A stretch of 64,000 nucleotides of DNA, from positions 1 through 64,000 of IMG/VR virus record IMGVR_UViG_3300025645_000047; one strand, given 5' to 3'. Both the position numbers and the translations under genes were made by a program. The notes under the pieces are model-generated. The model was not told where the DNA came from, did no database searches, and worked only from the letters and a program-made list of their open reading frames with translations. Below are positions 1 to 30,155 of this stretch, in pieces (positions within the stretch are counted from its first letter, which is position 1; every line of letters starts with the position of its first letter). The DNA comes from a virus.

Positions 1-35
1 GACTATGTCTCAAAAAAAAAAAAAAAATAAAAAAT

Positions 36-84
36 TTCAGCTATAACACTCATTTCATTTAGGGCCTATTTAAGCGTACATTTA
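36..84 (+). promoter_or_regulatory. Class B bipartite promoter, copy 1 (TTCAGCTATAACA ... TACATTTA)
   Basis: AGCTATAA at 39 and a -7-like box TACATTTA at 77 (offset 38), the same geometry as four other intergenic copies. Confidence 0.65.
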
Positions 85-87
85 TGT

Positions 88-270
88 ATGATCAAGATAG
101 CCACTAAAATATTCTGTACAGCTGTATATCTGCTTGGTGGTACAGTCAGGATTGAGTTGGTTATACTTCCTAGGACACTGGCAATGTTATCTTTCTTTTA
201 TTTTATATACATAGTGTTTCCTTTGATAAAGCTTGGCTATTATTATTTATTTACTTACATTTGGGCATGA
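88..270 (+). CDS. Small hydrophobic hypothetical protein
   Basis: 60 aa, hydrophobic; its stop overlaps the next ATG (ATGA); start lies very close to the -7 box, so it may be leaderless or spurious. Confidence 0.4.
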   Translation: MIKIATKIFCTAVYLLGGTVRIELVILPRTLAMLSFFYFIYIVFPLIKLGYYYLFTYIWA

Positions 271-482
271 ATTGGAAAGATTACTTAACATCTAAAGGCT
301 TCATATACAATGAGAAGAAGGATTCCTGGATCAAGGGTAAAGGGTGGGGTAAGTCTTATTCAGTTTCTATGATAATGAAAGGATTGTTTGAAATAAAGGA
401 TGCTGGAGATGTAGTATTCTCTGATTACGTAAATAGTCTTGAAGAATTTAAGGCATTAATTAAAAAATACATAGATGAGTAA
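267..482 (+). CDS. Hypothetical protein
   Basis: ATG at 267 (MNWKDYL...); tightly packed with neighbours. Confidence 0.7.
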   Translation: MNWKDYLTSKGFIYNEKKDSWIKGKGWGKSYSVSMIMKGLFEIKDAGDVVFSDYVNSLEEFKALIKKYIDE

Positions 483-780
483 ATACGAATTTAACGACTT
501 AATAGATGGATCTATCAGCACAACATCAAACCCAATTCTAACCCAGACCCATAGCTACTTAAATGGTATACAAGTTAATCATACTGGTATCAATAATCAT
601 ACTAGTATCAATACAAATTATTTAATTAGTATTCCGGATGGTGAGATTACATTTGAGGAATTAAATAAAACTATGAATACTTTGTCTAATGCAGTTGTCC
701 ATATGCAAACCAAGATAAAGGATTTAGAAAAAAAGAAAGAATCTGAAAAGATTAATAAAAGAAATATATTTAAAAAATAA
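475..780 (+). CDS. Hypothetical protein with C-terminal coiled coil
   Basis: 101 aa, overlaps the previous gene. Confidence 0.65.
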   Translation: MSKYEFNDLIDGSISTTSNPILTQTHSYLNGIQVNHTGINNHTSINTNYLISIPDGEITFEELNKTMNTLSNAVVHMQTKIKDLEKKKESEKINKRNIFKK

Positions 781-783
781 AAT

Positions 784-1053
784 ATGATATTATTTATAGA
801 AGCAGTAATAGTACTTGGCTTAATTGCATTTCCAATAGTAAAGACTTACTTTAAGGGTGCTGTAGAATGGATGTGGATAAGTGGACTAGTTCTTGGAATT
901 AATGCAGGAGCAGTAATGTTTAGTGCAATGATTGATGATGAAAAAAGGATCTTTAAGATGTATACTTTTCAATTCCACCTTTTTCTAATAACAGTAAGCA
1001 TGGCCTTTTCAATAGAGAAGCCAGATTATGAACTTGAAGAAGAAGAAGAGTAA
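784..1053 (+). CDS. Small membrane protein
   Basis: About three hydrophobic segments and an acidic tail. Confidence 0.7.
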   Translation: MILFIEAVIVLGLIAFPIVKTYFKGAVEWMWISGLVLGINAGAVMFSAMIDDEKRIFKMYTFQFHLFLITVSMAFSIEKPDYELEEEEE

Positions 1054-1256
1054 TGGAGACAGAAGATTACAACTCAAAAGATTACACCTTGTACAACTCA
1101 TTCCTAGAAGCTGCAGCTGACTTTGTAACAGAACAAGACGAAGAGTGGATAGCTAAAGAAGTAGATAAGACTGTAGATTACTTAAAAGCCATGGAGCCTT
1201 CAAAGACTGCAAAAAGAAATCTTCCTTGGAAGACATCAAAAGATGGTGATATCTAA
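1053..1256 (+). CDS. Hypothetical protein
   Basis: TAATG translational coupling to the upstream gene. Confidence 0.7.
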   Translation: METEDYNSKDYTLYNSFLEAAADFVTEQDEEWIAKEVDKTVDYLKAMEPSKTAKRNLPWKTSKDGDI

Positions 1257-1257
1257 A

Positions 1258-1289
1258 TTTGGATTATAGGTAAATAAGATATATCTTTA
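1258..1289 (+). promoter_or_regulatory. Host-type Bacteroidota -33/-7 promoter
   Basis: TTTG at 1258, 20-nt spacer, TATCTTTA at 1282. Confidence 0.6.
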
Positions 1290-1644
1290 CAAAATAGTTA
1301 TTACAGTGTTTTAACTGATATAAAATCTGCAGCTAATCAATCAACACATATTGAAAGGGTACAGATGATCAGGGAGGTTTAAGTAATAATGTTGAATACA
1401 CAGGAAACCTTTTATACTATACGCTTAAGATTGGACTGGATATGGAACAAGTAATTCCTTCTGAAATAACAGATGTTATCAGTCCTTGGCAATTTTACAC
1501 TGTCTTAAGGAAGGTATAAAGAAAACTGTTCCAGAGAACACTAACCCAGTGATTCTCAAGGGATTTGTGTTTTTAATCGTTAATATTAATAAAGTTGTTT
1601 CACAAATATAATGTCTAGAGAATAATACCTCTAGGCATTTTTTT
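1290..1644 (+). ncRNA. Putative structured non-coding RNA of unknown family
   Basis: 447-bp gap with no ORF of 60 aa or more, bounded by a promoter and terminator; nested helices 1411-1417/1514-1520, 1424-1430/1503-1509, 1433-1438/1480-1485, 1343-1348/1566-1571. Confidence 0.55.
1612..1644 (+). terminator. Intrinsic terminator
   Basis: TGTCTAGAG-loop-CTCTAGGCA followed by a T-run. Confidence 0.8.
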
Positions 1645-1654
1645 ATGGAATATA

Positions 1655-1686
1655 TTAGGATTTAGGTTTTTTTTAATATATATTTG
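1655..1686 (+). promoter_or_regulatory. Host-type -33/-7 promoter
   Basis: TTAGGA at 1655 and TATATTTG at 1679 (offset 24). Confidence 0.65.
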
Positions 1687-1703
1687 GAAAAACCTAAAAG
1701 AAA

Positions 1704-2078
1704 ATGAGTACAGAAAAAGAGCCTAAAGAAATTACAGTTGAAGACATTAAACAACAAATGACTGCTGATGACCTGGCAAAAACCTTAAGGCTTGCTCCTT
1801 CTAAAAGAGTAATACTTGGTCTAACAAATGACCACCTAGTAAAACACAACGCACTTATATTCCACAAAGGATCTTCCTTATCATCTGCACAACGCAAAAT
1901 GGTACAGGAGAGAGTTGCCTATGGATTAAACAAAGGAACTATTACTACTGAGCAAGTTGCGGGAGAGATCAATAAACTAAATGCTCTTATTCAAGGAGAA
2001 TTAATAAAAATTACTAAAGATGACAGTATCACTGAGCACTCAGTTTCAGATAAGGAAGAAACTGGAGAAGATTCTTGA
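1704..2078 (+). CDS. Hypothetical protein
   Basis: 124 aa, A-rich start context immediately after a promoter. Confidence 0.8.
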   Translation: MSTEKEPKEITVEDIKQQMTADDLAKTLRLAPSKRVILGLTNDHLVKHNALIFHKGSSLSSAQRKMVQERVAYGLNKGTITTEQVAGEINKLNALIQGELIKITKDDSITEHSVSDKEETGEDS

Positions 2079-2259
2079 TCTTGCAAAAGAAAGAGAAACT
2101 ACCTGCATAACAATAATGACAAACAGAGATTGGCACATAAAAGTGTTTAATTTCTTTTTAAATCATGATAAGATAGGATGGATGAAGATTGGAGGAAACA
2201 CAATCTTTATAATTAAAGAAATGAGAATAGAACTTAAACCAATAGACTTTTATATATGA
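2020..2259 (+). CDS. Hypothetical protein
   Basis: 79 aa, ATGA overlap with the next gene. Confidence 0.6.
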   Translation: MTVSLSTQFQIRKKLEKILDLAKERETTCITIMTNRDWHIKVFNFFLNHDKIGWMKIGGNTIFIIKEMRIELKPIDFYI

Positions 2260-2480
2260 GTAGATTTAGTCAAATAGTAAGTGGATACAAAAACTTAGTT
2301 AAATCTAAGTTAGGGTTGTCCGATGAAAAAGATGAAGAGATCTTTGAAGCAAGAAGAACAATATGCAACGCATGTAAGTTTAAGTCTGCATTAGATAGAT
2401 GTTTAAAGTGTGGATGCCCATTAGGAGCAAAGACAAGAAGTCTTGATAGTGATAATGGTTGTCCAGAAAAACACTGGTAA
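2256..2480 (+). CDS. Small Cys-rich metal-binding protein (DUF6171-like)
   Basis: RxxICxxC...CxxCGCPLxAKTR...CPxxxW pattern. Confidence 0.7.
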   Translation: MSRFSQIVSGYKNLVKSKLGLSDEKDEEIFEARRTICNACKFKSALDRCLKCGCPLGAKTRSLDSDNGCPEKHW

Positions 2481-2481
2481 T

Positions 2482-2646
2482 ATGATATTAACAATAAATC
2501 TACATCCGGAAGTAGTAAAGTTTCTTGAAGAAACAGGAACAGTCTATTTTGACAATACAGGAGAGAAGTCCTATATAGTTAATGGCACTATGTATAAAGA
2601 AACAAATGAAGAAGGATTATACACAACACAATTCATACAAGATTAA
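2482..2646 (+). CDS. Hypothetical protein
   Basis: Likely start at 2482 (MILTINL); TAATG coupling to groEL. Confidence 0.6.
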   Translation: MILTINLHPEVVKFLEETGTVYFDNTGEKSYIVNGTMYKETNEEGLYTTQFIQD

Positions 2647-4220
2647 TGACAGAAATTAAGTTTGACCAGGAAGTAAGAGATGGCATCAAGGCCGGAGTAG
2701 ATGCCTTGGCCAATGCAGTAAAAGTAACCTTGGGCCCAAGAGGACTCAATGTAATTATACAGAGACACAATCAAGATCCTCAAGTTACTAAAGATGGAGT
2801 TACTGTAGCAAAAGAGATTGAGCTAGAAGATCCTATACAAAACATGGGAGCAACTGTAGTTAAGAGAGTGGCAGAGAAATCTAACGATGATGCTGGTGAC
2901 GGAACTACAACAGCTACTGTCTTGGCCCAAGCAATTCTAAGTGAAGGGCTAAAGCTTGTAGCTGCCGGATATAATCCTGTAGAAATTAAAAGAGGAATAG
3001 ATAAAGCTACACAGGTAATAGTAGGTCACCTTAACAGTTCGGCCATACCGGTAACACACGGATCAGACATGATAGAGCACATTGCTACTATCTCTGCAAA
3101 CAATGATCCTGAAATAGGTAAGATTGTTGCAGAGGCATTTAGAAGAGTAGGGTCAGATGGAGCTGTGAGTGTTGAAGAAGGTGCAGGTTTTGAGACTGTA
3201 GTTCACAGAGTAGACGGATTACAATTTGATAGAGGAATGGCCTCATCATTCTTCTCTACTTCTCCTGATAAGGCAGAAGCAACAATGAGGAACCCCTTAA
3301 TACTAGTAGTAGAGGGAAAGGTAACAACCAAAGAACAAATAATGGCGGTACTAGAACCGGTAATAAAACTAGGGAAACCTTTAGTTATAATAGCGGAGGA
3401 CATTGCCGGAGATGCATTGTCAACACTTATACTAAACAAGTTAAAGGGTGGGCATAGTCTTGCAGCAGTAAAGGCACCAGGATTTGGATCATTAAGAACA
3501 GACCTAACTAAAGACATAGCAATCATTGTAGGAGCACAAGTAGTTCCTGCTGATATGGTGGCTGATATAACATCAGAATACATTGAACAACTATTAGGCA
3601 CGGCAACAACAGTTAAGATTGAAGGTATGTCTACTGTGATAATGGGTGGGAAAAGAAGTGAAGAAGAGGTAGCTGATAGGATAAAAGAAATTGAGGCAAA
3701 GATAGCTGACAATAAGATAACTAAATTTGAGGTAGACAAACTACTTGAAAGAAAGGCAAAATTAGGTGGAGGCGTAGCAATTATAGAAGTTGGGGCAAAG
3801 TCTGAGATTGACATGAAAGAAAAGAAGGATAGAGTTGATGATGCAAAGGAAGCAGTAATATCAGCACTTGAAGAAGGAGTTGTGTTAGGCGGAGGATGTG
3901 CACTACTCAACTGCAAAGACTTAGTAGTGAACGTGTTAGAAAATACCGATGAAAAAATAGGGGTGCAACTAATAATGAAAGCTATAGAGGCACCATTCAG
4001 AACAATATGCGATAACGCAGGTGTTAGTTCAGATTTGAAAATAGAAGGGGTAATGTCTAGGCCTACAGGAACCGGATACAATGCAAAAACAGATGAATAT
4101 GTAGAAATGATTGACGCAGGTATACTTGATCCAAAAAAGGTTACAAGAATAGCACTAGAAAGTGCTGCTAGCGTTTCAGGCACATTGCTCACTACAGCAT
4201 GTGCCATAACAATAAAATAA
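2646..4220 (+). CDS. groEL: Phage-encoded chaperonin GroEL (Cpn60)
   Basis: AVKVTLGPRG, TKDGVTVAKEI, GDGTTTATVLAQ, KAPGFG, EKKDRVDDA, GILDPKKV motifs; no C-terminal GGM tail. Confidence 0.97.
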   Translation: MTEIKFDQEVRDGIKAGVDALANAVKVTLGPRGLNVIIQRHNQDPQVTKDGVTVAKEIELEDPIQNMGATVVKRVAEKSNDDAGDGTTTATVLAQAILSEGLKLVAAGYNPVEIKRGIDKATQVIVGHLNSSAIPVTHGSDMIEHIATISANNDPEIGKIVAEAFRRVGSDGAVSVEEGAGFETVVHRVDGLQFDRGMASSFFSTSPDKAEATMRNPLILVVEGKVTTKEQIMAVLEPVIKLGKPLVIIAEDIAGDALSTLILNKLKGGHSLAAVKAPGFGSLRTDLTKDIAIIVGAQVVPADMVADITSEYIEQLLGTATTVKIEGMSTVIMGGKRSEEEVADRIKEIEAKIADNKITKFEVDKLLERKAKLGGGVAIIEVGAKSEIDMKEKKDRVDDAKEAVISALEEGVVLGGGCALLNCKDLVVNVLENTDEKIGVQLIMKAIEAPFRTICDNAGVSSDLKIEGVMSRPTGTGYNAKTDEYVEMIDAGILDPKKVTRIALESAASVSGTLLTTACAITIK

Positions 4221-4221
4221 G

Positions 4222-4566
4222 ATGAAACATGAAGAACTGATTCGAGAAATTGAAAGAAGAGAACAGCAAAATCAAATGGCTCCTTTTCCAATGCATGACA
4301 CGGAAGTAATTAACGATTTAAAAATACTTAATATGATGACAGCAAAAGAAGGATACGAGCAAGAGCCGGTTACCTATTGCAAAACGTGTATGTCTATACA
4401 CATTAAAACTATAGAGTTTGAAGATGGGCCAGGGGGAGAAGAAAGATATGTGGACTATTGCGTTCCTTGTGGAAACACAGATTTAGATAAAGTTTATTTA
4501 GCAGAGTGGGAAGAACTTTATGCTGAGAAGTATGGTGATAAATTTCTAACCAAAAATAATAAGTAA
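4222..4566 (+). CDS. Zinc-ribbon protein
   Basis: EPVTYCKTC...DYCVPCG (two CxxC pairs); resembles a conserved crAss-like gene found near the terminase. Confidence 0.75.
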   Translation: MKHEELIREIERREQQNQMAPFPMHDTEVINDLKILNMMTAKEGYEQEPVTYCKTCMSIHIKTIEFEDGPGGEERYVDYCVPCGNTDLDKVYLAEWEELYAEKYGDKFLTKNNK

Positions 4567-4567
4567 C

Positions 4568-4846
4568 ATGAATATATTTAGTTTTGACGGATGGAAAGAC
4601 AATGCTTTTAAAGCTAAATATATAGACTCTGATCTTAAGGTCCTGGAAATCAAAGCATCTTGGTTTCACAATCAAGTTGAAGAGATGAATAAACAAATGA
4701 CTAAATTAAAATTATTAATAAACACAGTCATAAGTGGATCTAAAGAAAAAAACAAGTATGAGCTATCAGTTAAAATAAATCAGTATGACGGCAGGAAACA
4801 ACATGAACATAAAGAGAATACACACAGACAAGAAATCAATATTTAG
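4568..4846 (+). CDS. Hypothetical protein
   Basis: 92 aa, tightly packed in the operon. Confidence 0.65.
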   Translation: MNIFSFDGWKDNAFKAKYIDSDLKVLEIKASWFHNQVEEMNKQMTKLKLLINTVISGSKEKNKYELSVKINQYDGRKQHEHKENTHRQEINI

Positions 4847-5171
4847 ATATTGGTTGGCTCTTCTCAAGCCTTATCATAAATTAAGGCAAAAAGAAATAGA
4901 CGCATTAGGGCTGTTGTTATATTATCGATATGAATTGACTAGAGAGATAAAGGATATAGACATGGTTGACATGATTCTATTCTCCACCCAAACTAGAACA
5001 AAAATAAGAGAAGATCTTGGAGGAATGGGTCAAAAGGTTTTTAATAACCTACTTACTTCCTTGAGAAAGAAGAGTGTCATAACAAAAGATAATAAAATAA
5101 ATCCAGTATTAATTCCTAAAATGTCTGAAAATGGATTTAAGTTAATATTTGATTTTGAAGTAAAAAAATGA
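4803..5171 (+). CDS. Putative winged-helix DNA-binding protein
   Basis: Basic; LFSTQTRTKIREDLGGMGQKVFNNLLTSLRKKSVI resembles an HTH plus wing; probable start at 4803. Confidence 0.55.
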   Translation: MNIKRIHTDKKSIFRYWLALLKPYHKLRQKEIDALGLLLYYRYELTREIKDIDMVDMILFSTQTRTKIREDLGGMGQKVFNNLLTSLRKKSVITKDNKINPVLIPKMSENGFKLIFDFEVKK

Positions 5172-5488
5172 AACCAAAGAAAAAAACTTATGCAGATCAA
5201 CTACATAGATCAAATATAGTTGATGGAGAAAAAACTAAAGAGCTAGCAAAGAAATATGACATGGATCTTGGCTTAATGAAAAAGCTCCTGGCTGCACCTT
5301 ATGAGTTTATTCAGAAAAAAACAAGGGAACTTGATTTTAAAGATGGGTTGACTAAAGAAGAATTTGATAAAATAAAAAAAGACTTTAACATTCCTGCATT
5401 AGGAAAAGTTTTTGCATCAAATTACTTGTATAACGAAATACAGAAAAAAAAGAATAAAACTAAAACAATAAGAGATGATAACAGATAA
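5168..5488 (+). CDS. HU/IHF-like DNA-binding protein
   Basis: KELAKKY...FNIPALGKVF pattern resembles the HU/IHF fold. Confidence 0.5.
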   Translation: MKPKKKTYADQLHRSNIVDGEKTKELAKKYDMDLGLMKKLLAAPYEFIQKKTRELDFKDGLTKEEFDKIKKDFNIPALGKVFASNYLYNEIQKKKNKTKTIRDDNR

Positions 5489-5579
5489 AGATTATACCAG
5501 GATAGGTATCGTAGTATTTAAAGTAGCTATTGTAGCATTTGCAATAGGAGTATTAATAGGGTATTTAATTTTTAATTAA
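5475..5579 (+). CDS. 34-aa single-pass membrane peptide (not in ORF track)
   Basis: MITDKDYTRIGIVVFKVAIVAFAIGVLIGYLIFN fills the gap in the operon. Confidence 0.6.
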   Translation: MITDKDYTRIGIVVFKVAIVAFAIGVLIGYLIFN

Positions 5580-5586
5580 TATTAAA

Positions 5587-5754
5587 ATGGAAGAAGCTAA
5601 ATTATTTGTAACAACAGAAGATCTTTTAAATAAAACTTTAAAATATCTTGGAACAAAGCCGTACATTGAAGTCGCTGGATTAATAAAAGGACTTATGGCC
5701 GCAGCACCTTACAAAACAAAAATAGAAGAAAATAATGGAGAAGCAGAATCTTAA
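5587..5754 (+). CDS. 55-aa hypothetical protein (not in ORF track)
   Basis: MEEAKLFVTTEDLLNKTLKYLGTKPYIEVAGLIKGLMAA...; good A-rich start context. Confidence 0.7.
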   Translation: MEEAKLFVTTEDLLNKTLKYLGTKPYIEVAGLIKGLMAAAPYKTKIEENNGEAES

Positions 5755-6337
5755 AAGAGGTCAGGCCTCCAAGGACGTAGAAAGGCTCAAGGGAGAGGAA
5801 GCCAGAGACCTTGGAGTTGCAGACTTCTTCAATACTAGAGATAGATCTAGAAGAGGATCAGGAGGACTTGTTGAGGATACAACTAAAGTTCTTAATGATG
5901 AGGTGACAGTAAAGGAAAGGTTATACGAGGACTCTCACAATGTAAGTGCAATCCCAGCGTATGTAAATCCAATGTTTGCAGGAATCTTTCTAACAGCAAA
6001 AAGAAATAAGATAACAGAGAATGGAATATATCTTCCAACTGCATCGTATGGAAAAGGAACTGATACAGATATGGATGTAGACTTTTCTGAAAAACAATTT
6101 GTATTAGCTGTAGGGCCACACACTCAACAAGTATGTGTTGGTATGGAAGTTGTTTTAAATATGGACAACTTTAAAAAAAGACTTGAGAGTAACATGGCTC
6201 AAAAGCTAAGTAAAGAATTTGAATACATATTGCCTATAGAGGTAATTGAAGGTACAGAATACCTGTACGTAAGCGAAAGAGATATAAAGTATATCTCAAA
6301 TACTAATGGAATATTAAAAATAAAAGACAATGTTTAA
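5735..6337 (+). CDS. GroES-like co-chaperonin with N-terminal extension
   Basis: NPMFAGIFL...ITENGIYLP...VLAVGP..QVCVGMEVVL...EYLYVSERDI parallels the GroES pattern PLxDRV..TxGGIxLP..VxAVGPG..VKVGDxV..EYLIxxExDI. Confidence 0.75.
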   Translation: MEKQNLKRGQASKDVERLKGEEARDLGVADFFNTRDRSRRGSGGLVEDTTKVLNDEVTVKERLYEDSHNVSAIPAYVNPMFAGIFLTAKRNKITENGIYLPTASYGKGTDTDMDVDFSEKQFVLAVGPHTQQVCVGMEVVLNMDNFKKRLESNMAQKLSKEFEYILPIEVIEGTEYLYVSERDIKYISNTNGILKIKDNV

Positions 6338-27490: not shown

Positions 27491-28630
27491 ATGGAAGAAT
27501 TAAATTTAGGAGATTTGAATTTTGACACGGACACTCTTCAGTTATTTGATGAGTCAACAGGAGTGCAAGAACCAAAAGCAGACGGGACTACTCCTCCGTC
27601 AACAACAGTTGCAGATGCTGCAGTAGCTAATGTAACAAACGATACAAACACTGATGGTGAAGGTGATGATCCAGTGGATCCAAACCTAGAGAGCGTAGCT
27701 GATCAGAGTAAAGACAAAAATCAAGTTCAGGCAGGTAAAACACCTAATGGAAAAGAAGGCAGCGATTCTTCCTCTCCTAAACTGAATGAGACTGAACAGC
27801 TTTATTCAAACTTAGCTGCCGAATTCAAAGCCAAAGGTATTTTACCTGAGCTTGATGATGTTTCTTCTATAAAGTCTATGAAAGACATAGAAGAAGCAAT
27901 TAAGAAATCAGTCGATTCTAGACTAACAGAACGACAGAAAGTTATTGAAGATGCACAGAAAGCTGGAGCACCAATAACAGAGGTTTCTCAAAAAGTAGAC
28001 ACCATAGATAAACTTAAGCAGGTTACTCCTGAGTTTATTAGAGATGACAATAACATTCAGTTTAGAAAGACTGCAATTGTTCAAGATTTCATTGAAAAAG
28101 GATATGGTGCTGAAAGAGCTGAAGCAATGGCTCAAAGAAGTATTGATGCTGGTACAGATATTGAAGATGCAGAATTTGCATTAGAGAGTCTTATTAAATC
28201 AGAAGAGGCTTCTTTAAAAATTATAATTGATAATGCAAAGGCTGGAGAAAAAGAAAGCCTAAATAACATTAAAGATTATATTGCTAAAACATCAGAAGTA
28301 ATTCCTGGTATTGAATTAACTGATTCTCAAAAGGATGAGTTATACAATCAGATTACTACTGACTTAGGTAATAAGGACAACGCATTTATGGTTGCCCAAA
28401 AAGCTGATCCAATTGGATCTAGAATTAAACTCGAAGCTTTATTTTACTTAACTGGTGGTCTAAAAGACTTTTCTATATTTGGAAACAAAGCAGAAAGTAA
28501 GATTACTAATAACATAGAAAATTTATTAAGAGGTGCTAATTTTACGCAAGAAGGTTCAGTAGATACTAATGTAGCTGATGGAAATTCTAACTTTAAATTA
28601 TCAGATCTTAAGGATTTAACAATAGAGTAA
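27491..28630 (+). CDS. Acidic scaffold-like protein upstream of the MCP
   Basis: Disordered acidic N-terminus and helical C-terminus; conserved position in the crAss-like capsid module. Confidence 0.7.
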   Translation: MEELNLGDLNFDTDTLQLFDESTGVQEPKADGTTPPSTTVADAAVANVTNDTNTDGEGDDPVDPNLESVADQSKDKNQVQAGKTPNGKEGSDSSSPKLNETEQLYSNLAAEFKAKGILPELDDVSSIKSMKDIEEAIKKSVDSRLTERQKVIEDAQKAGAPITEVSQKVDTIDKLKQVTPEFIRDDNNIQFRKTAIVQDFIEKGYGAERAEAMAQRSIDAGTDIEDAEFALESLIKSEEASLKIIIDNAKAGEKESLNNIKDYIAKTSEVIPGIELTDSQKDELYNQITTDLGNKDNAFMVAQKADPIGSRIKLEALFYLTGGLKDFSIFGNKAESKITNNIENLLRGANFTQEGSVDTNVADGNSNFKLSDLKDLTIE

Positions 28631-28655
28631 ACAACTTTTTAAAAACAATTAAATT

Positions 28656-30155
28656 ATGCAATTAGGACGGTTCCAAGTAACTGACGCAAAAGCGTTTGCT
28701 GGTATGATTAATCCTGAAAACACATTAGGTGCTATCTGGAAAACATCTCCAACAAAGATTAATGATGCTATGATCAAATTGTTAGCAATCAATAGAGGTA
28801 AGTCTCTAGAGAACATGCTAGCTAAATTTGAGACTAAGCAAGTAGAGAATGACAATGAGTTCTATTGGGAGCTTATAGGCTCTTCTCGTAGAAACATTCC
28901 ATTAGTGGAAGCTTCTTTCAAAGGTGCAACTGTTACAGGTAGTGACAACAACATTGGAGAAGGTGGCCAAGAATTTGAATTAACATTTGACGAGCAGTGG
29001 TTCTTCAAAGGTGAATTGATTGTTGGTGAAAAAAATGAAGTGTATCCAATTAGACTATTAGATGATGGTTATCCATCAGGAAGTCAGTGGGTTCATACTG
29101 CAGAAATTGCAGGTTCAGATCGTTCAGGTATCCCTGGTTCTGAATTGGTAGCTGGAAAAAGATTTACTGAAGAGTTCGCTCCTGTAGGTAAAGGTTTATC
29201 TCGTGAAGTAGGTGGAATTCGTAGAGTTACTCCTGTCGCTATGAGAGGTGAGTTAACTACTATTCGTATTGACCACAAACTTCCAGGTGATGCTACAAAC
29301 AAGCAAGTTGTAATGGGTCTTCCTGTTATTGACAAGGCTGGTAACAAAAAAGTATTTGGTGCATTATCATTATACGAGGATTGGTTAGTAGAGCAAGAAT
29401 TTTCTCTTTACAAAAACAAATTCCTTATGTATGGTAAGACAAACAGAACTTCTGATGGTCAGTACCATAACAAAGATGTTTCTGGACGTAGTATCAAAAT
29501 TGGATCAGGTATCCGTGAGCAAATGGAGCAATCTAACACTTACTTCTACAATGATTTCTCAATTGAGTTATTAGAAGAAATCCTTTTCGGATTATCAGAA
29601 GGTAAGTTAGGATTCAACCAACGTGTTTTCATTCTTCGTACAGGAGAAAGAGGAGCTGCAGAATTCCACAAAGCTGTCTTACAGACAACTTCAGGATGGT
29701 CAGCTAACATGAGTACTCCAGGAACTAACCCTGCAACTGTAAAAAGCACTAGCTCTGAGTTACATAGTAACGCAATGGCTGCTGGATTCCAGTTCGTAGA
29801 GTATATGGCTCCAAACGGTGTAACTGTTAAGTTAGAAGTAGATGATTTCTATGATGATAAAATTCGTAACACAATCAAGATCCCTGGATCTAATGGTGTA
29901 GCTGAATCTTACAGATTTGATATCTTTTACATGGGTACTATGGAAGATCCAAACATCCAAAAAGTACAAGTTAAAGGTAAGGAAGAGTACCGTGGATATC
30001 AGTATGGTTTCAGAAATCCTTTTACAGGAGCTGTAAACAACGAGAACATGGGAACTTTAGAGGACAGTGGAACTATCACCAAATGGTGTCAGTTAGGAGT
30101 TGTGGTTTATGACCCAAGTCGTACCGCTTCAATCATCCCTTACGTATTAGCGTAA
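28656..30155 (+). CDS. Major capsid protein
   Basis: 499 aa; FYWELIGSSRRNIPL, GSGIREQME, LRTGERGA..F, GFQFVEY.APNG motifs of the crAss-like MCP; biased codon use; terminator downstream. Confidence 0.92.
   Translation: MQLGRFQVTDAKAFAGMINPENTLGAIWKTSPTKINDAMIKLLAINRGKSLENMLAKFETKQVENDNEFYWELIGSSRRNIPLVEASFKGATVTGSDNNIGEGGQEFELTFDEQWFFKGELIVGEKNEVYPIRLLDDGYPSGSQWVHTAEIAGSDRSGIPGSELVAGKRFTEEFAPVGKGLSREVGGIRRVTPVAMRGELTTIRIDHKLPGDATNKQVVMGLPVIDKAGNKKVFGALSLYEDWLVEQEFSLYKNKFLMYGKTNRTSDGQYHNKDVSGRSIKIGSGIREQMEQSNTYFYNDFSIELLEEILFGLSEGKLGFNQRVFILRTGERGAAEFHKAVLQTTSGWSANMSTPGTNPATVKSTSSELHSNAMAAGFQFVEYMAPNGVTVKLEVDDFYDDKIRNTIKIPGSNGVAESYRFDIFYMGTMEDPNIQKVQVKGKEEYRGYQYGFRNPFTGAVNNENMGTLEDSGTITKWCQLGVVVYDPSRTASIIPYVLA

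Follow-up and report, generated by a model that had tools for sequence, protein, structure and literature searches.

A stretch of 64,000 nucleotides (nt), called the window here and forming the first 64 kb of the 90,570-bp IMG/VR virus record IMGVR_UViG_3300025645_000047, carries on its plus strand, at positions 1294-1644, what is very probably a genuine gene for a structured RNA whose family has not been catalogued. The RNA folds into two multi-branched domains tied together by a pseudoknot between a loop and the 3´ end. Its locus is accessory and exchangeable: related phages carry an unrelated folded core within one and the same frame of promoter, tail and terminator. An earlier note, made from the letters of this DNA alone, had proposed a new phage non-coding RNA with promoter and terminator of its own. 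That proposal is upheld on several counts: the pairings covary, the region is better conserved than the flanking genes, it has no conserved open reading frame (ORF) and it matches no known family.

An ORF-free and strongly conserved region

Interval 1257-1703 is the sole gap of at least 250 nt between ORFs of at least 60 amino acids (aa) in the plus strand block of the genome, in agreement with its earlier description as the largest ORF-free gap. Stop codons TAA, TAG and TGA are mixed in all six frames of 1200-1720. Therefore, no alternative genetic code opens the gap, and we rejected this explanation.

Homologues were collected in several ways. A conserved 74-aa neighbour, used as bait in IMG/VR, led to relatives, three of which hold copies of 1290-1580 with about 80% identity. 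Scanning of metagenomes with a two-block pattern gave 17 stretches, and a covariance model made from the first four sequences finds the RNA in 14 of them, some being duplicates; the other three (L090, L099, L101) are chance matches in unrelated sequence. A survey anchored on a conserved 128-aa protein supplied further copies, some of them scoring at only 161-184 bits. Two alignments were used below. The first, A7, consists of 14 distinct sequences of the window's RNA type (type 1), aligned by MAFFT and not fitted to any structure. The second, fitted to the model, consists of 20 sequences and is biased towards the model's structure. Other searches were less productive. Among 75 stretches from a 16-mer scan of IMG/VR, the RNA was present in only three contigs (one stretch, L064, shares 34 nt and has no model match), and none of the 28 stretches that fitted the pattern around a 124-aa neighbour, taken as an IMG/VR anchor, was confirmed. 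In cellular genomes, the type-1 pattern gave no stretches.

Across the homologues, no conserved reading frame was found in 1257-1703. Small ORFs at 1389-1454, 1442-1519 and 1486-1611 have lost their starts, or gained stops or frameshifts, in most homologues; conservation does not follow them, as the earlier note had considered for 1442-1519 among others. The RNA core is 75-88% identical to the window copy, whereas groEL DNA reaches 65-72%, and in nine of nine loci the core is the best-conserved segment of the neighbourhood, above every adjacent gene. Unpaired stretches of the core are also close to invariant in A7, as is expected of a tertiary fold or of a surface contacting protein.

Secondary structure and pseudoknot

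The fold comprises the following elements.

1297-1390 (+): 5´ domain with helices P1 (1297-1304/1383-1390), P2 (1315-1319/1368-1372) and P3 (1326-1341/1350-1365)
1344-1348 (+): 5´ arm of the pseudoknot, ACACA in the loop of P3, paired with 1566-1570
1408-1561 (+): 3´ domain of seven helices, from the alignment of 14 homologues: 1408-1411/1558-1561, 1412-1416/1515-1519, 1422-1431/1502-1510, 1433-1439/1479-1485, 1444-1446/1456-1458, 1460-1463/1470-1473 and 1534-1541/1549-1557
1487-1499 (+): site of a variable hairpin, longer and with a GAAA loop in L010 and L088
1566-1570 (+): 3´ arm of the pseudoknot, UGUGU, with an alternative partner at 1398-1404 (ACACAGG)

The earlier note had advised that homologous intergenic regions upstream of groEL be tested for covariation. 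In the 14 sequences of A7, the 76 predicted pairs (12 helices) are kept at 97.5%, against 39-47% when the partners are slid by 1-3 columns, and 31 of the 76 change on both sides, against 1-9 when slid. Not one of 500 shuffles reaches the observed percentage of pairing, number of both-side changes or covariation score, statistics which overstate independence because the sequences are related and represent few lineages; the count of further pair types is matched by 457 of the 500. The model-fitted alignment is 94.5% paired, with both-side changes at 42 of 78 pairs (9-15 when slid). Folding energy, which had also been suggested for comparison with shuffles, gives z -2.10 for the plus strand (2 of 100 shuffles as good) and z -2.76 for the minus strand, and is weak evidence by itself. 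The strand is indicated by invariant G-U pairs (for example, A7 columns 33:100, 57:80 and 164:206). On the opposite strand they would be A-C mismatches, and therefore the plus strand is the RNA strand.

The 5´ domain was not among the pairings listed earlier. Its helices are 94-100% paired and change on both sides in five of eight pairs of P1, four of P2 and two of P3; in two diverged copies (G001 and G005), P1 and P2 are rebuilt with other letters. Within the 3´ domain, each helix has 1-7 covarying pairs, except for 1408-1411/1558-1561, which has none. The nested pairings TTTATAC/GTATAAA, CTTAAGA/TCTTAAG and GGACTG/CAGTCC, the small hairpins GGAA/TTCC and TCTG/CAGA and the hairpin at 1534-1557, all noticed in the window sequence beforehand, are kept with compensatory changes. 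Another pairing from that list, AGGTTT/AAACCT, is 100% complementary, never varies and clashes with other helices. The long-range candidates 1304-1309/1497-1502 and 1372-1379/1406-1413 are invariant as well.

The pairing AACACA/TGTGTT had been listed with the nested set. It is indeed kept and covaries, but it is not nested: it connects the loop of P3 with the 3´ end as a pseudoknot. The pseudoknot is 100% paired in the 14 sequences and 98% in the 20, and in 0 of 500 shuffles was its percentage of pairing or covariation score attained. Its arms vary in concert, as ACGCA/UGCGU, ACAAA/UUUGU, an expanded CAGGAG/CUCCUG (L151) and AGAA/UUCU (G001 and G005). The crossing pairings proposed earlier, TGGAACA/TGTTCCA and GGGT/ACCC, did not stand: pairing is kept at only 78.6% and 80.4%, covariation is absent and most shuffles do as well.

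Promoter, terminator and predicted ends of the RNA

The transcription unit is framed by these elements.

1258-1261 (+): -33 element TTTG of the Bacteroidota sigma-A type (TTTG in 10 loci, TTAG in 4 loci)
1282-1289 (+): -7 box TATCTTTA (TATATTTG in 13 other homologues)
1294-1644 (+): predicted RNA of about 351 nt, its ends deduced from promoter geometry and terminator
1294-1577 (+): conserved core of about 285 nt, from the homologue alignment
1592-1600 (+): conserved tail AAGUUGUUU between core and terminator, predicted to be single-stranded
1610-1644 (+): intrinsic terminator with an 11-bp stem (1610-1639), an 8-nt loop and a T run
1679-1686 (+): separate -7 box TATATTTG of the next gene (1704-2078), marking the 3´ boundary of the RNA unit

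Every one of the 14 homologues has a TT(T/A)G box exactly 20 nt ahead of a TA(T)nTTT(G/A) box (ten found by regular expression, and the four with TTAG for TTTG by eye), and the -7 box precedes the conserved 5´ AUAG of the RNA by 4-7 nt. According to an excerpt of PMC9723704, the Bacteroidota -7 box, with consensus TAnnTTTG, sits at -12 to -5, which places the transcription start near 1294. The host-type promoter formerly assigned to 1258-1289 is thus retained as a Bacteroidota sigma-A pattern, but not as one of the E. coli type: a scan for E. coli-type sigma-70 promoters found none on the plus strand at 1258-1289.

At the other end, the terminator had been placed at 1612-1644, and the 11-bp stem with its T run agrees with this. 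Of the 13 homologues whose flanks extend far enough, 12 keep a hairpin of -10.4 to -15.5 kcal/mol followed by T7-T9; in L012, one is found further downstream. The tail follows the core by 12-24 nt in 12 of 14 type-1 loci, reads AAGGTTGTTT in L012 and is missing from L098, where the flank is cut. Five more copies of AAGUUGUUU occur in the window, all outside the RNA unit, and no terminator follows them in the stretches inspected. Past the RNA terminator, a -7-like box of the next gene lies 12-38 nt before its start codon in 11 of 12 loci.

A further motif, AGCTATAA (the 'class B' box of the earlier note), occurs 12 times in the window against 5.4 expected, a count reached by 2 of 100 shuffles. 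Its sites are at 39, 9533, 19647, 24700, 25702, 27416, 54516 and 61516 on the plus strand, with four more on the minus strand; it is also present upstream of the promoter of a second RNA type, described below, in L107 and L108. With up to one mismatch, TGCAGCTAAT occurs 16 times against 7.8 expected. A link between this box and the RNA promoter was rejected, the GCAGCUAAU of the RNA being only half similar.

A second RNA type in the same slot

Three loci, L004, L006 and L007, lack the type-1 RNA and contain, at the same slot, another unit running from promoter to terminator (type 2).

L004 3262-3575; L006 2546-2860; L007 672-975: type-2 RNA with a core of about 300 nt, found also in L107, L108, L134, L138, L141 and L144

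The type-2 fold is 95% paired, against 34-48% when slid, and 25 of its 68 pairs covary. The type-2 alignment has eight sequences. Both types share the promoter, the tail AAGUUGUUU, the terminator and short words such as AGUGU, AGGUUAAAGU and ACCUUUU. Homology of the cores could not be demonstrated. Covariance model R1 has no match on the type-2 loci (with filters off for L004 and L007), nhmmer profiles run both ways give no significant core match, and we do not treat the two types as one family. In cellular genomes, an 18-mer of type 2 gave 15 stretches in unrelated phyla, about the number estimated by hand for chance, none of which extends beyond 21 nt. No RNA family was found at the matched sites, the only Rfam match being a distant transfer RNA (tRNA) in L110.

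Next, we examined what occupies the slot in related phages. Among 20 IMG/VR loci with the downstream gene, several of them contigs known from the earlier searches, type 1 is present in ten, type 2 in nine and neither in one. The slot of L009/L146 holds no RNA, and in two complete genomes of more distant phages (G002 and G003; 6.5 kb of each examined) ordinary genes are found there. In G003, the stretch upstream of a small-gene cluster (L208 3300-4040) has only short, odd-looking ORFs and could represent a cluster of RNA genes.

A GroEL tree of 12 rows, from this single gene and with midpoint rooting only, places the type-2 locus L007 as sister to the type-1 loci L010 and L012 (100/99), and clusters type-2 L004 and L006 with type-1 L088, L092 and L102 (100/99). 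The core types are interleaved on this tree, which implies either exchange of the cores or recombination at the locus.

Possible action in trans or in cis

The explanation that we favour, as a whole plausible yet tentative, is that of a stand-alone structured RNA gene of about 350 nt, situated in an exchangeable slot and acting in trans through a protein-binding fold. The RNA would be transcribed by the host RNA polymerase and would work by its three-dimensional shape, most likely as a scaffold or decoy for a host or phage protein, much as the earlier note had guessed with its protein sponge or scaffold. Action in trans by binding protein, taken alone, is a proposal to which we give about the same or slightly less credit.

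Several observations weigh against this explanation. Besides the small number of lineages behind the shuffle statistics, they concern expression, partners, fold and reading frames. In metatranscriptome contigs (runs X16, X17, X18 and X20), depth is low and even over 1-6000, with 0-6.5 across the RNA; being contigs only, these data cannot reveal a discrete RNA, its ends or its strand. No neighbouring gene has a Pfam family above the curated cut-off, and none suggests a partner protein. The 3´ arm can also enter a rival helix, 1398-1404/1564-1570, with 95.8% pairing and a single pair that covaries. Two covarying partners for the 3´ strand UGUGU would suit a switch, and a conformational switch at this strand is possible. 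Finally, an 83-aa membrane-protein ORF lies between core and tail in type-2 L007 (973-1224), and a 70-aa membrane-protein ORF is likewise situated between core and tail in the diverged type-1 copy of G005 (L207 2242-2454) and at the matching place in G001 (L206). In these three phages, the structured part is a 5´ leader, favouring a role in cis or as an 'expression platform'.

The last two points, together with the invariable position of the RNA upstream of the small gene at 1704 and groEL, in the same orientation, are what speaks for a leader or attenuator acting in cis. The fold would then control termination at 1610-1644 and read-through into the small gene and groEL, or translation of an ORF directly after it. 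We hold this to be unlikely. Neither the window copy nor most homologues contain an ORF between core and tail. The ORF of L007 bears no relation to that of G005 (blastp E 0.39), and the two look like independent insertions. Between the core and the strong terminator lies a variable spacer, and no conserved anti-terminator or other conserved pairing of the terminator arm was seen by eye, though 1566-1570 has its competing partners. Moreover, in nearly all loci a separate promoter box precedes the next gene, as described above.

The source phage and the position of the locus

The record is 92% complete and has a G+C content of 35%. Terminase, portal and major capsid protein are named by PHROG families, and the major capsid protein shares 48-50% identity with its counterparts in crAss-like phages, among them cr108_1, DAC15 and PhiCrAssBcn. 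By these protein similarities, the source, an uncultured aquatic phage, is crAss-like. Among cultured phages, megablast and blastn found no close relative, nor did tblastn with the 74-aa neighbour protein, and GroEL identity is at most 48.6%. The gene for the 124-aa neighbour is present also at L009, where the RNA is absent.

Genes lie on the plus strand from 0 to about 67 kb and on the minus strand from about 67 to 90 kb, and GC skew tracks both blocks. With this layout, the two blocks would diverge at the contig end, and the RNA locus lies 1.3 kb from that point. Such a position is what a replication or other DNA-level element might occupy, for example an origin, a primer RNA like ColE1 RNA II or a packaging RNA. 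An element of this kind is nevertheless very improbable here. The G-U pairs are strand-specific, the slot holds no RNA in L009/L146 and in two complete relatives, and in sister phages an unrelated fold takes its place, whereas essential elements are not expected to be optional.

Across the divergence point, outside the window (genome 88216-90570; L126), lie three further ORF-poor gaps of 334, 551 and 978 nt. They contain a tRNA-Leu(UAA) at genome 89849-89920 on the minus strand; at E<=0.1, nothing else in them matches Rfam.

The tail and the capsid leader

The exact complement of the tail, the box AAACAACUUU, is found at 28629-28637, within the 25-nt leader of the major capsid messenger RNA (ATG at 28656). 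A second complement lies 5 nt ahead of the start of a minus strand gene at genome 79469. Among 31 distinct relatives, ACAACTT is present in the capsid leader of 16 (counted by eye) and the exact 9-mer in nine.

These matches, and the fact that the tail is the sole element common to both core types apart from the frame's signals and short words, raise the question of a base-pairing riboregulator. Its tail AAAGUUGUUU would pair with AAACAACUUU and tune late synthesis of capsid protein, the fold serving for stability or for recruiting a helper. We consider this slightly more doubtful than a cis-acting leader. By duplex energy the capsid leader is only fifth of 93 leaders, and an energy as good as the top one observed also arises in 4 of 60 trials with shuffled tails; this ranking is not significant and was discarded as support. 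AU-rich 9-mers match often. Furthermore, in G001 and G005 the tail has changed to AAAUUGUUUAAA, but the capsid leader retains its ACAACUU. The two complete genomes with a differing capsid leader (G002 and G003) carry no RNA at the slot. The complementarity of tail and capsid leader is best treated as a lead rather than a finding.

In its own right, the box (A)AACAACUUU is conserved directly past the stop codon of the gene that precedes the major capsid gene (window 28629-28637; about 1430-1500 in L158-L201). In some relatives, a GC-rich hairpin is inserted between the capsid-leader box and the start codon.

Comparison with known RNAs

Searched with Rfam 15 at gathering scores, the whole window gives no matches. 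At E<=10, there are only eight weak matches, driven by the terminator, the best of which is VrrA with 20 bits against a cut-off of 50. The covariance-model search recommended in the earlier note is therefore consistent with an uncatalogued RNA. The same note saw no signature of tRNA, transfer-messenger RNA (tmRNA) or RNase P. Accordingly, ARAGORN finds no tRNA or tmRNA genes in the window, and at E<=10 there is no match to tmRNA, RNase P or ribozyme models, RNase P having been tested on both RNA types. In type-2 L006, letters resembling P4 of RNase P were spotted by eye; they vary in L004 and L007, and the resemblance was dismissed.

These negative results bear on the idea of a ribozyme or RNA-processing RNA, or of a degenerate RNase P RNA or tmRNA. 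The highly conserved unpaired bases and the compact, pseudoknotted fold would be in keeping with such a molecule, and the cultured Cellulophaga crAss-like phage phi14:2 has a tmRNA in a comparable region. Against it stand the searches just described, the lack of a tRNA-like end, the non-conserved P4 resemblance and the dispensability of the locus. We find the idea very unlikely.

The earlier note had guessed at a 6S-like decoy of the host RNA polymerase. In general terms this fits a stable RNA made by a phage, and middle and late genes of crAss-like phages are reported to use the host polymerase. 6S RNA (RF00013) is likewise a stable non-coding RNA, and protein binding is proposed for the RNA of the window. 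However, no 6S model matches at E<=10. 6S RNA is a rod with a central bubble, whereas the present fold is branched and pseudoknotted, with neither a long rod nor a central bubble, and the host polymerase is needed by the phage. Of all the readings weighed here, this is the one we believe least.

No description of the RNA was found in the literature searched. A catalogue of over ten thousand structured-RNA candidates from viruses and phages (PMC10690425) was mined from IMG/VR and could include the motif, though neither crAss nor groEL nor chaperonin is named in its main text.

The nearest published parallel is the pair of long non-coding RNAs (lncRNAs) of phi14:2, at the g004-g005 and g005-g006 junctions. 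They are reported to be abundant, early and stable, to lie near the start of the rightward block, to exceed most genes in transcription already at the first time point, and to have a function 'to be determined' (bioRxiv 10.1101/2020.03.07.982082). In both cases, ORF-free units of several hundred nt lie near the start of a rightward block in a crAss-like phage of aquatic Bacteroidota. The differences are considerable. Model R1, with filters off, scores at best 6.1 bits (E 0.16) on phi14:2, blastn gives only short chance matches, and the lncRNAs resemble neither type 1 nor type 2. They are early RNAs of measured abundance, whereas the window RNA has a host-type promoter and is known from sequence alone. 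One of the two is a tmRNA, detected by the same tools that found none in the window: the g005-g006 junction (L125, NC_021806 4031-4500, plus strand) scores 46 bits with the Rfam tmRNA model against a cut-off of 47 (E 2.6e-16), and ARAGORN reads the tag peptide GSSVQKLAMVA*.

GOLLD (RF01998) and ROOL (RF03087) are also intricately folded orphan RNAs of phages and prophages with transcription units of their own. They measure about 600-800 nt, against about 350 nt here, and neither model matches the window. The packaging RNA (pRNA) of phage phi29, encoded near the genome end, is another phage-encoded structured RNA with loop pairings. It shows no similarity or family match to the RNA of the window, which is dispensable and exchangeable, and crAss-like phages are not phi29-like.

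Discussion

The two core types may be alternative versions of one function. The replacement of folds within one frame is the pattern expected of arms-race modules, and it can be combined with the tail into a single picture. Two unrelated pseudoknotted folds would be swapped within the common frame, serving as alternatives to each other as decoys or adaptors, each for another host factor, such as a defence or takeover target, and the tail AAAGUUGUUU would be their common working end, pairing with AAACAACUUU in the leader of the major capsid messenger RNA. This combination is speculative, and we rate it as improbable in its entirety.

Of the phages that infect Bacteroidota in guts and waters, the crAss-like ones rank with the most abundant, and little is known about their early biology. 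For one RNA of such a phage, a secondary structure backed by covariation, pseudoknot included, is now defined. Two unrelated folds in one transcription frame make the locus tractable as a test case. At present, its value is that of a well-documented lead. It also gives a hint that structured RNAs may be a regular, exchangeable part of the crAss-like toolkit and not a curiosity.

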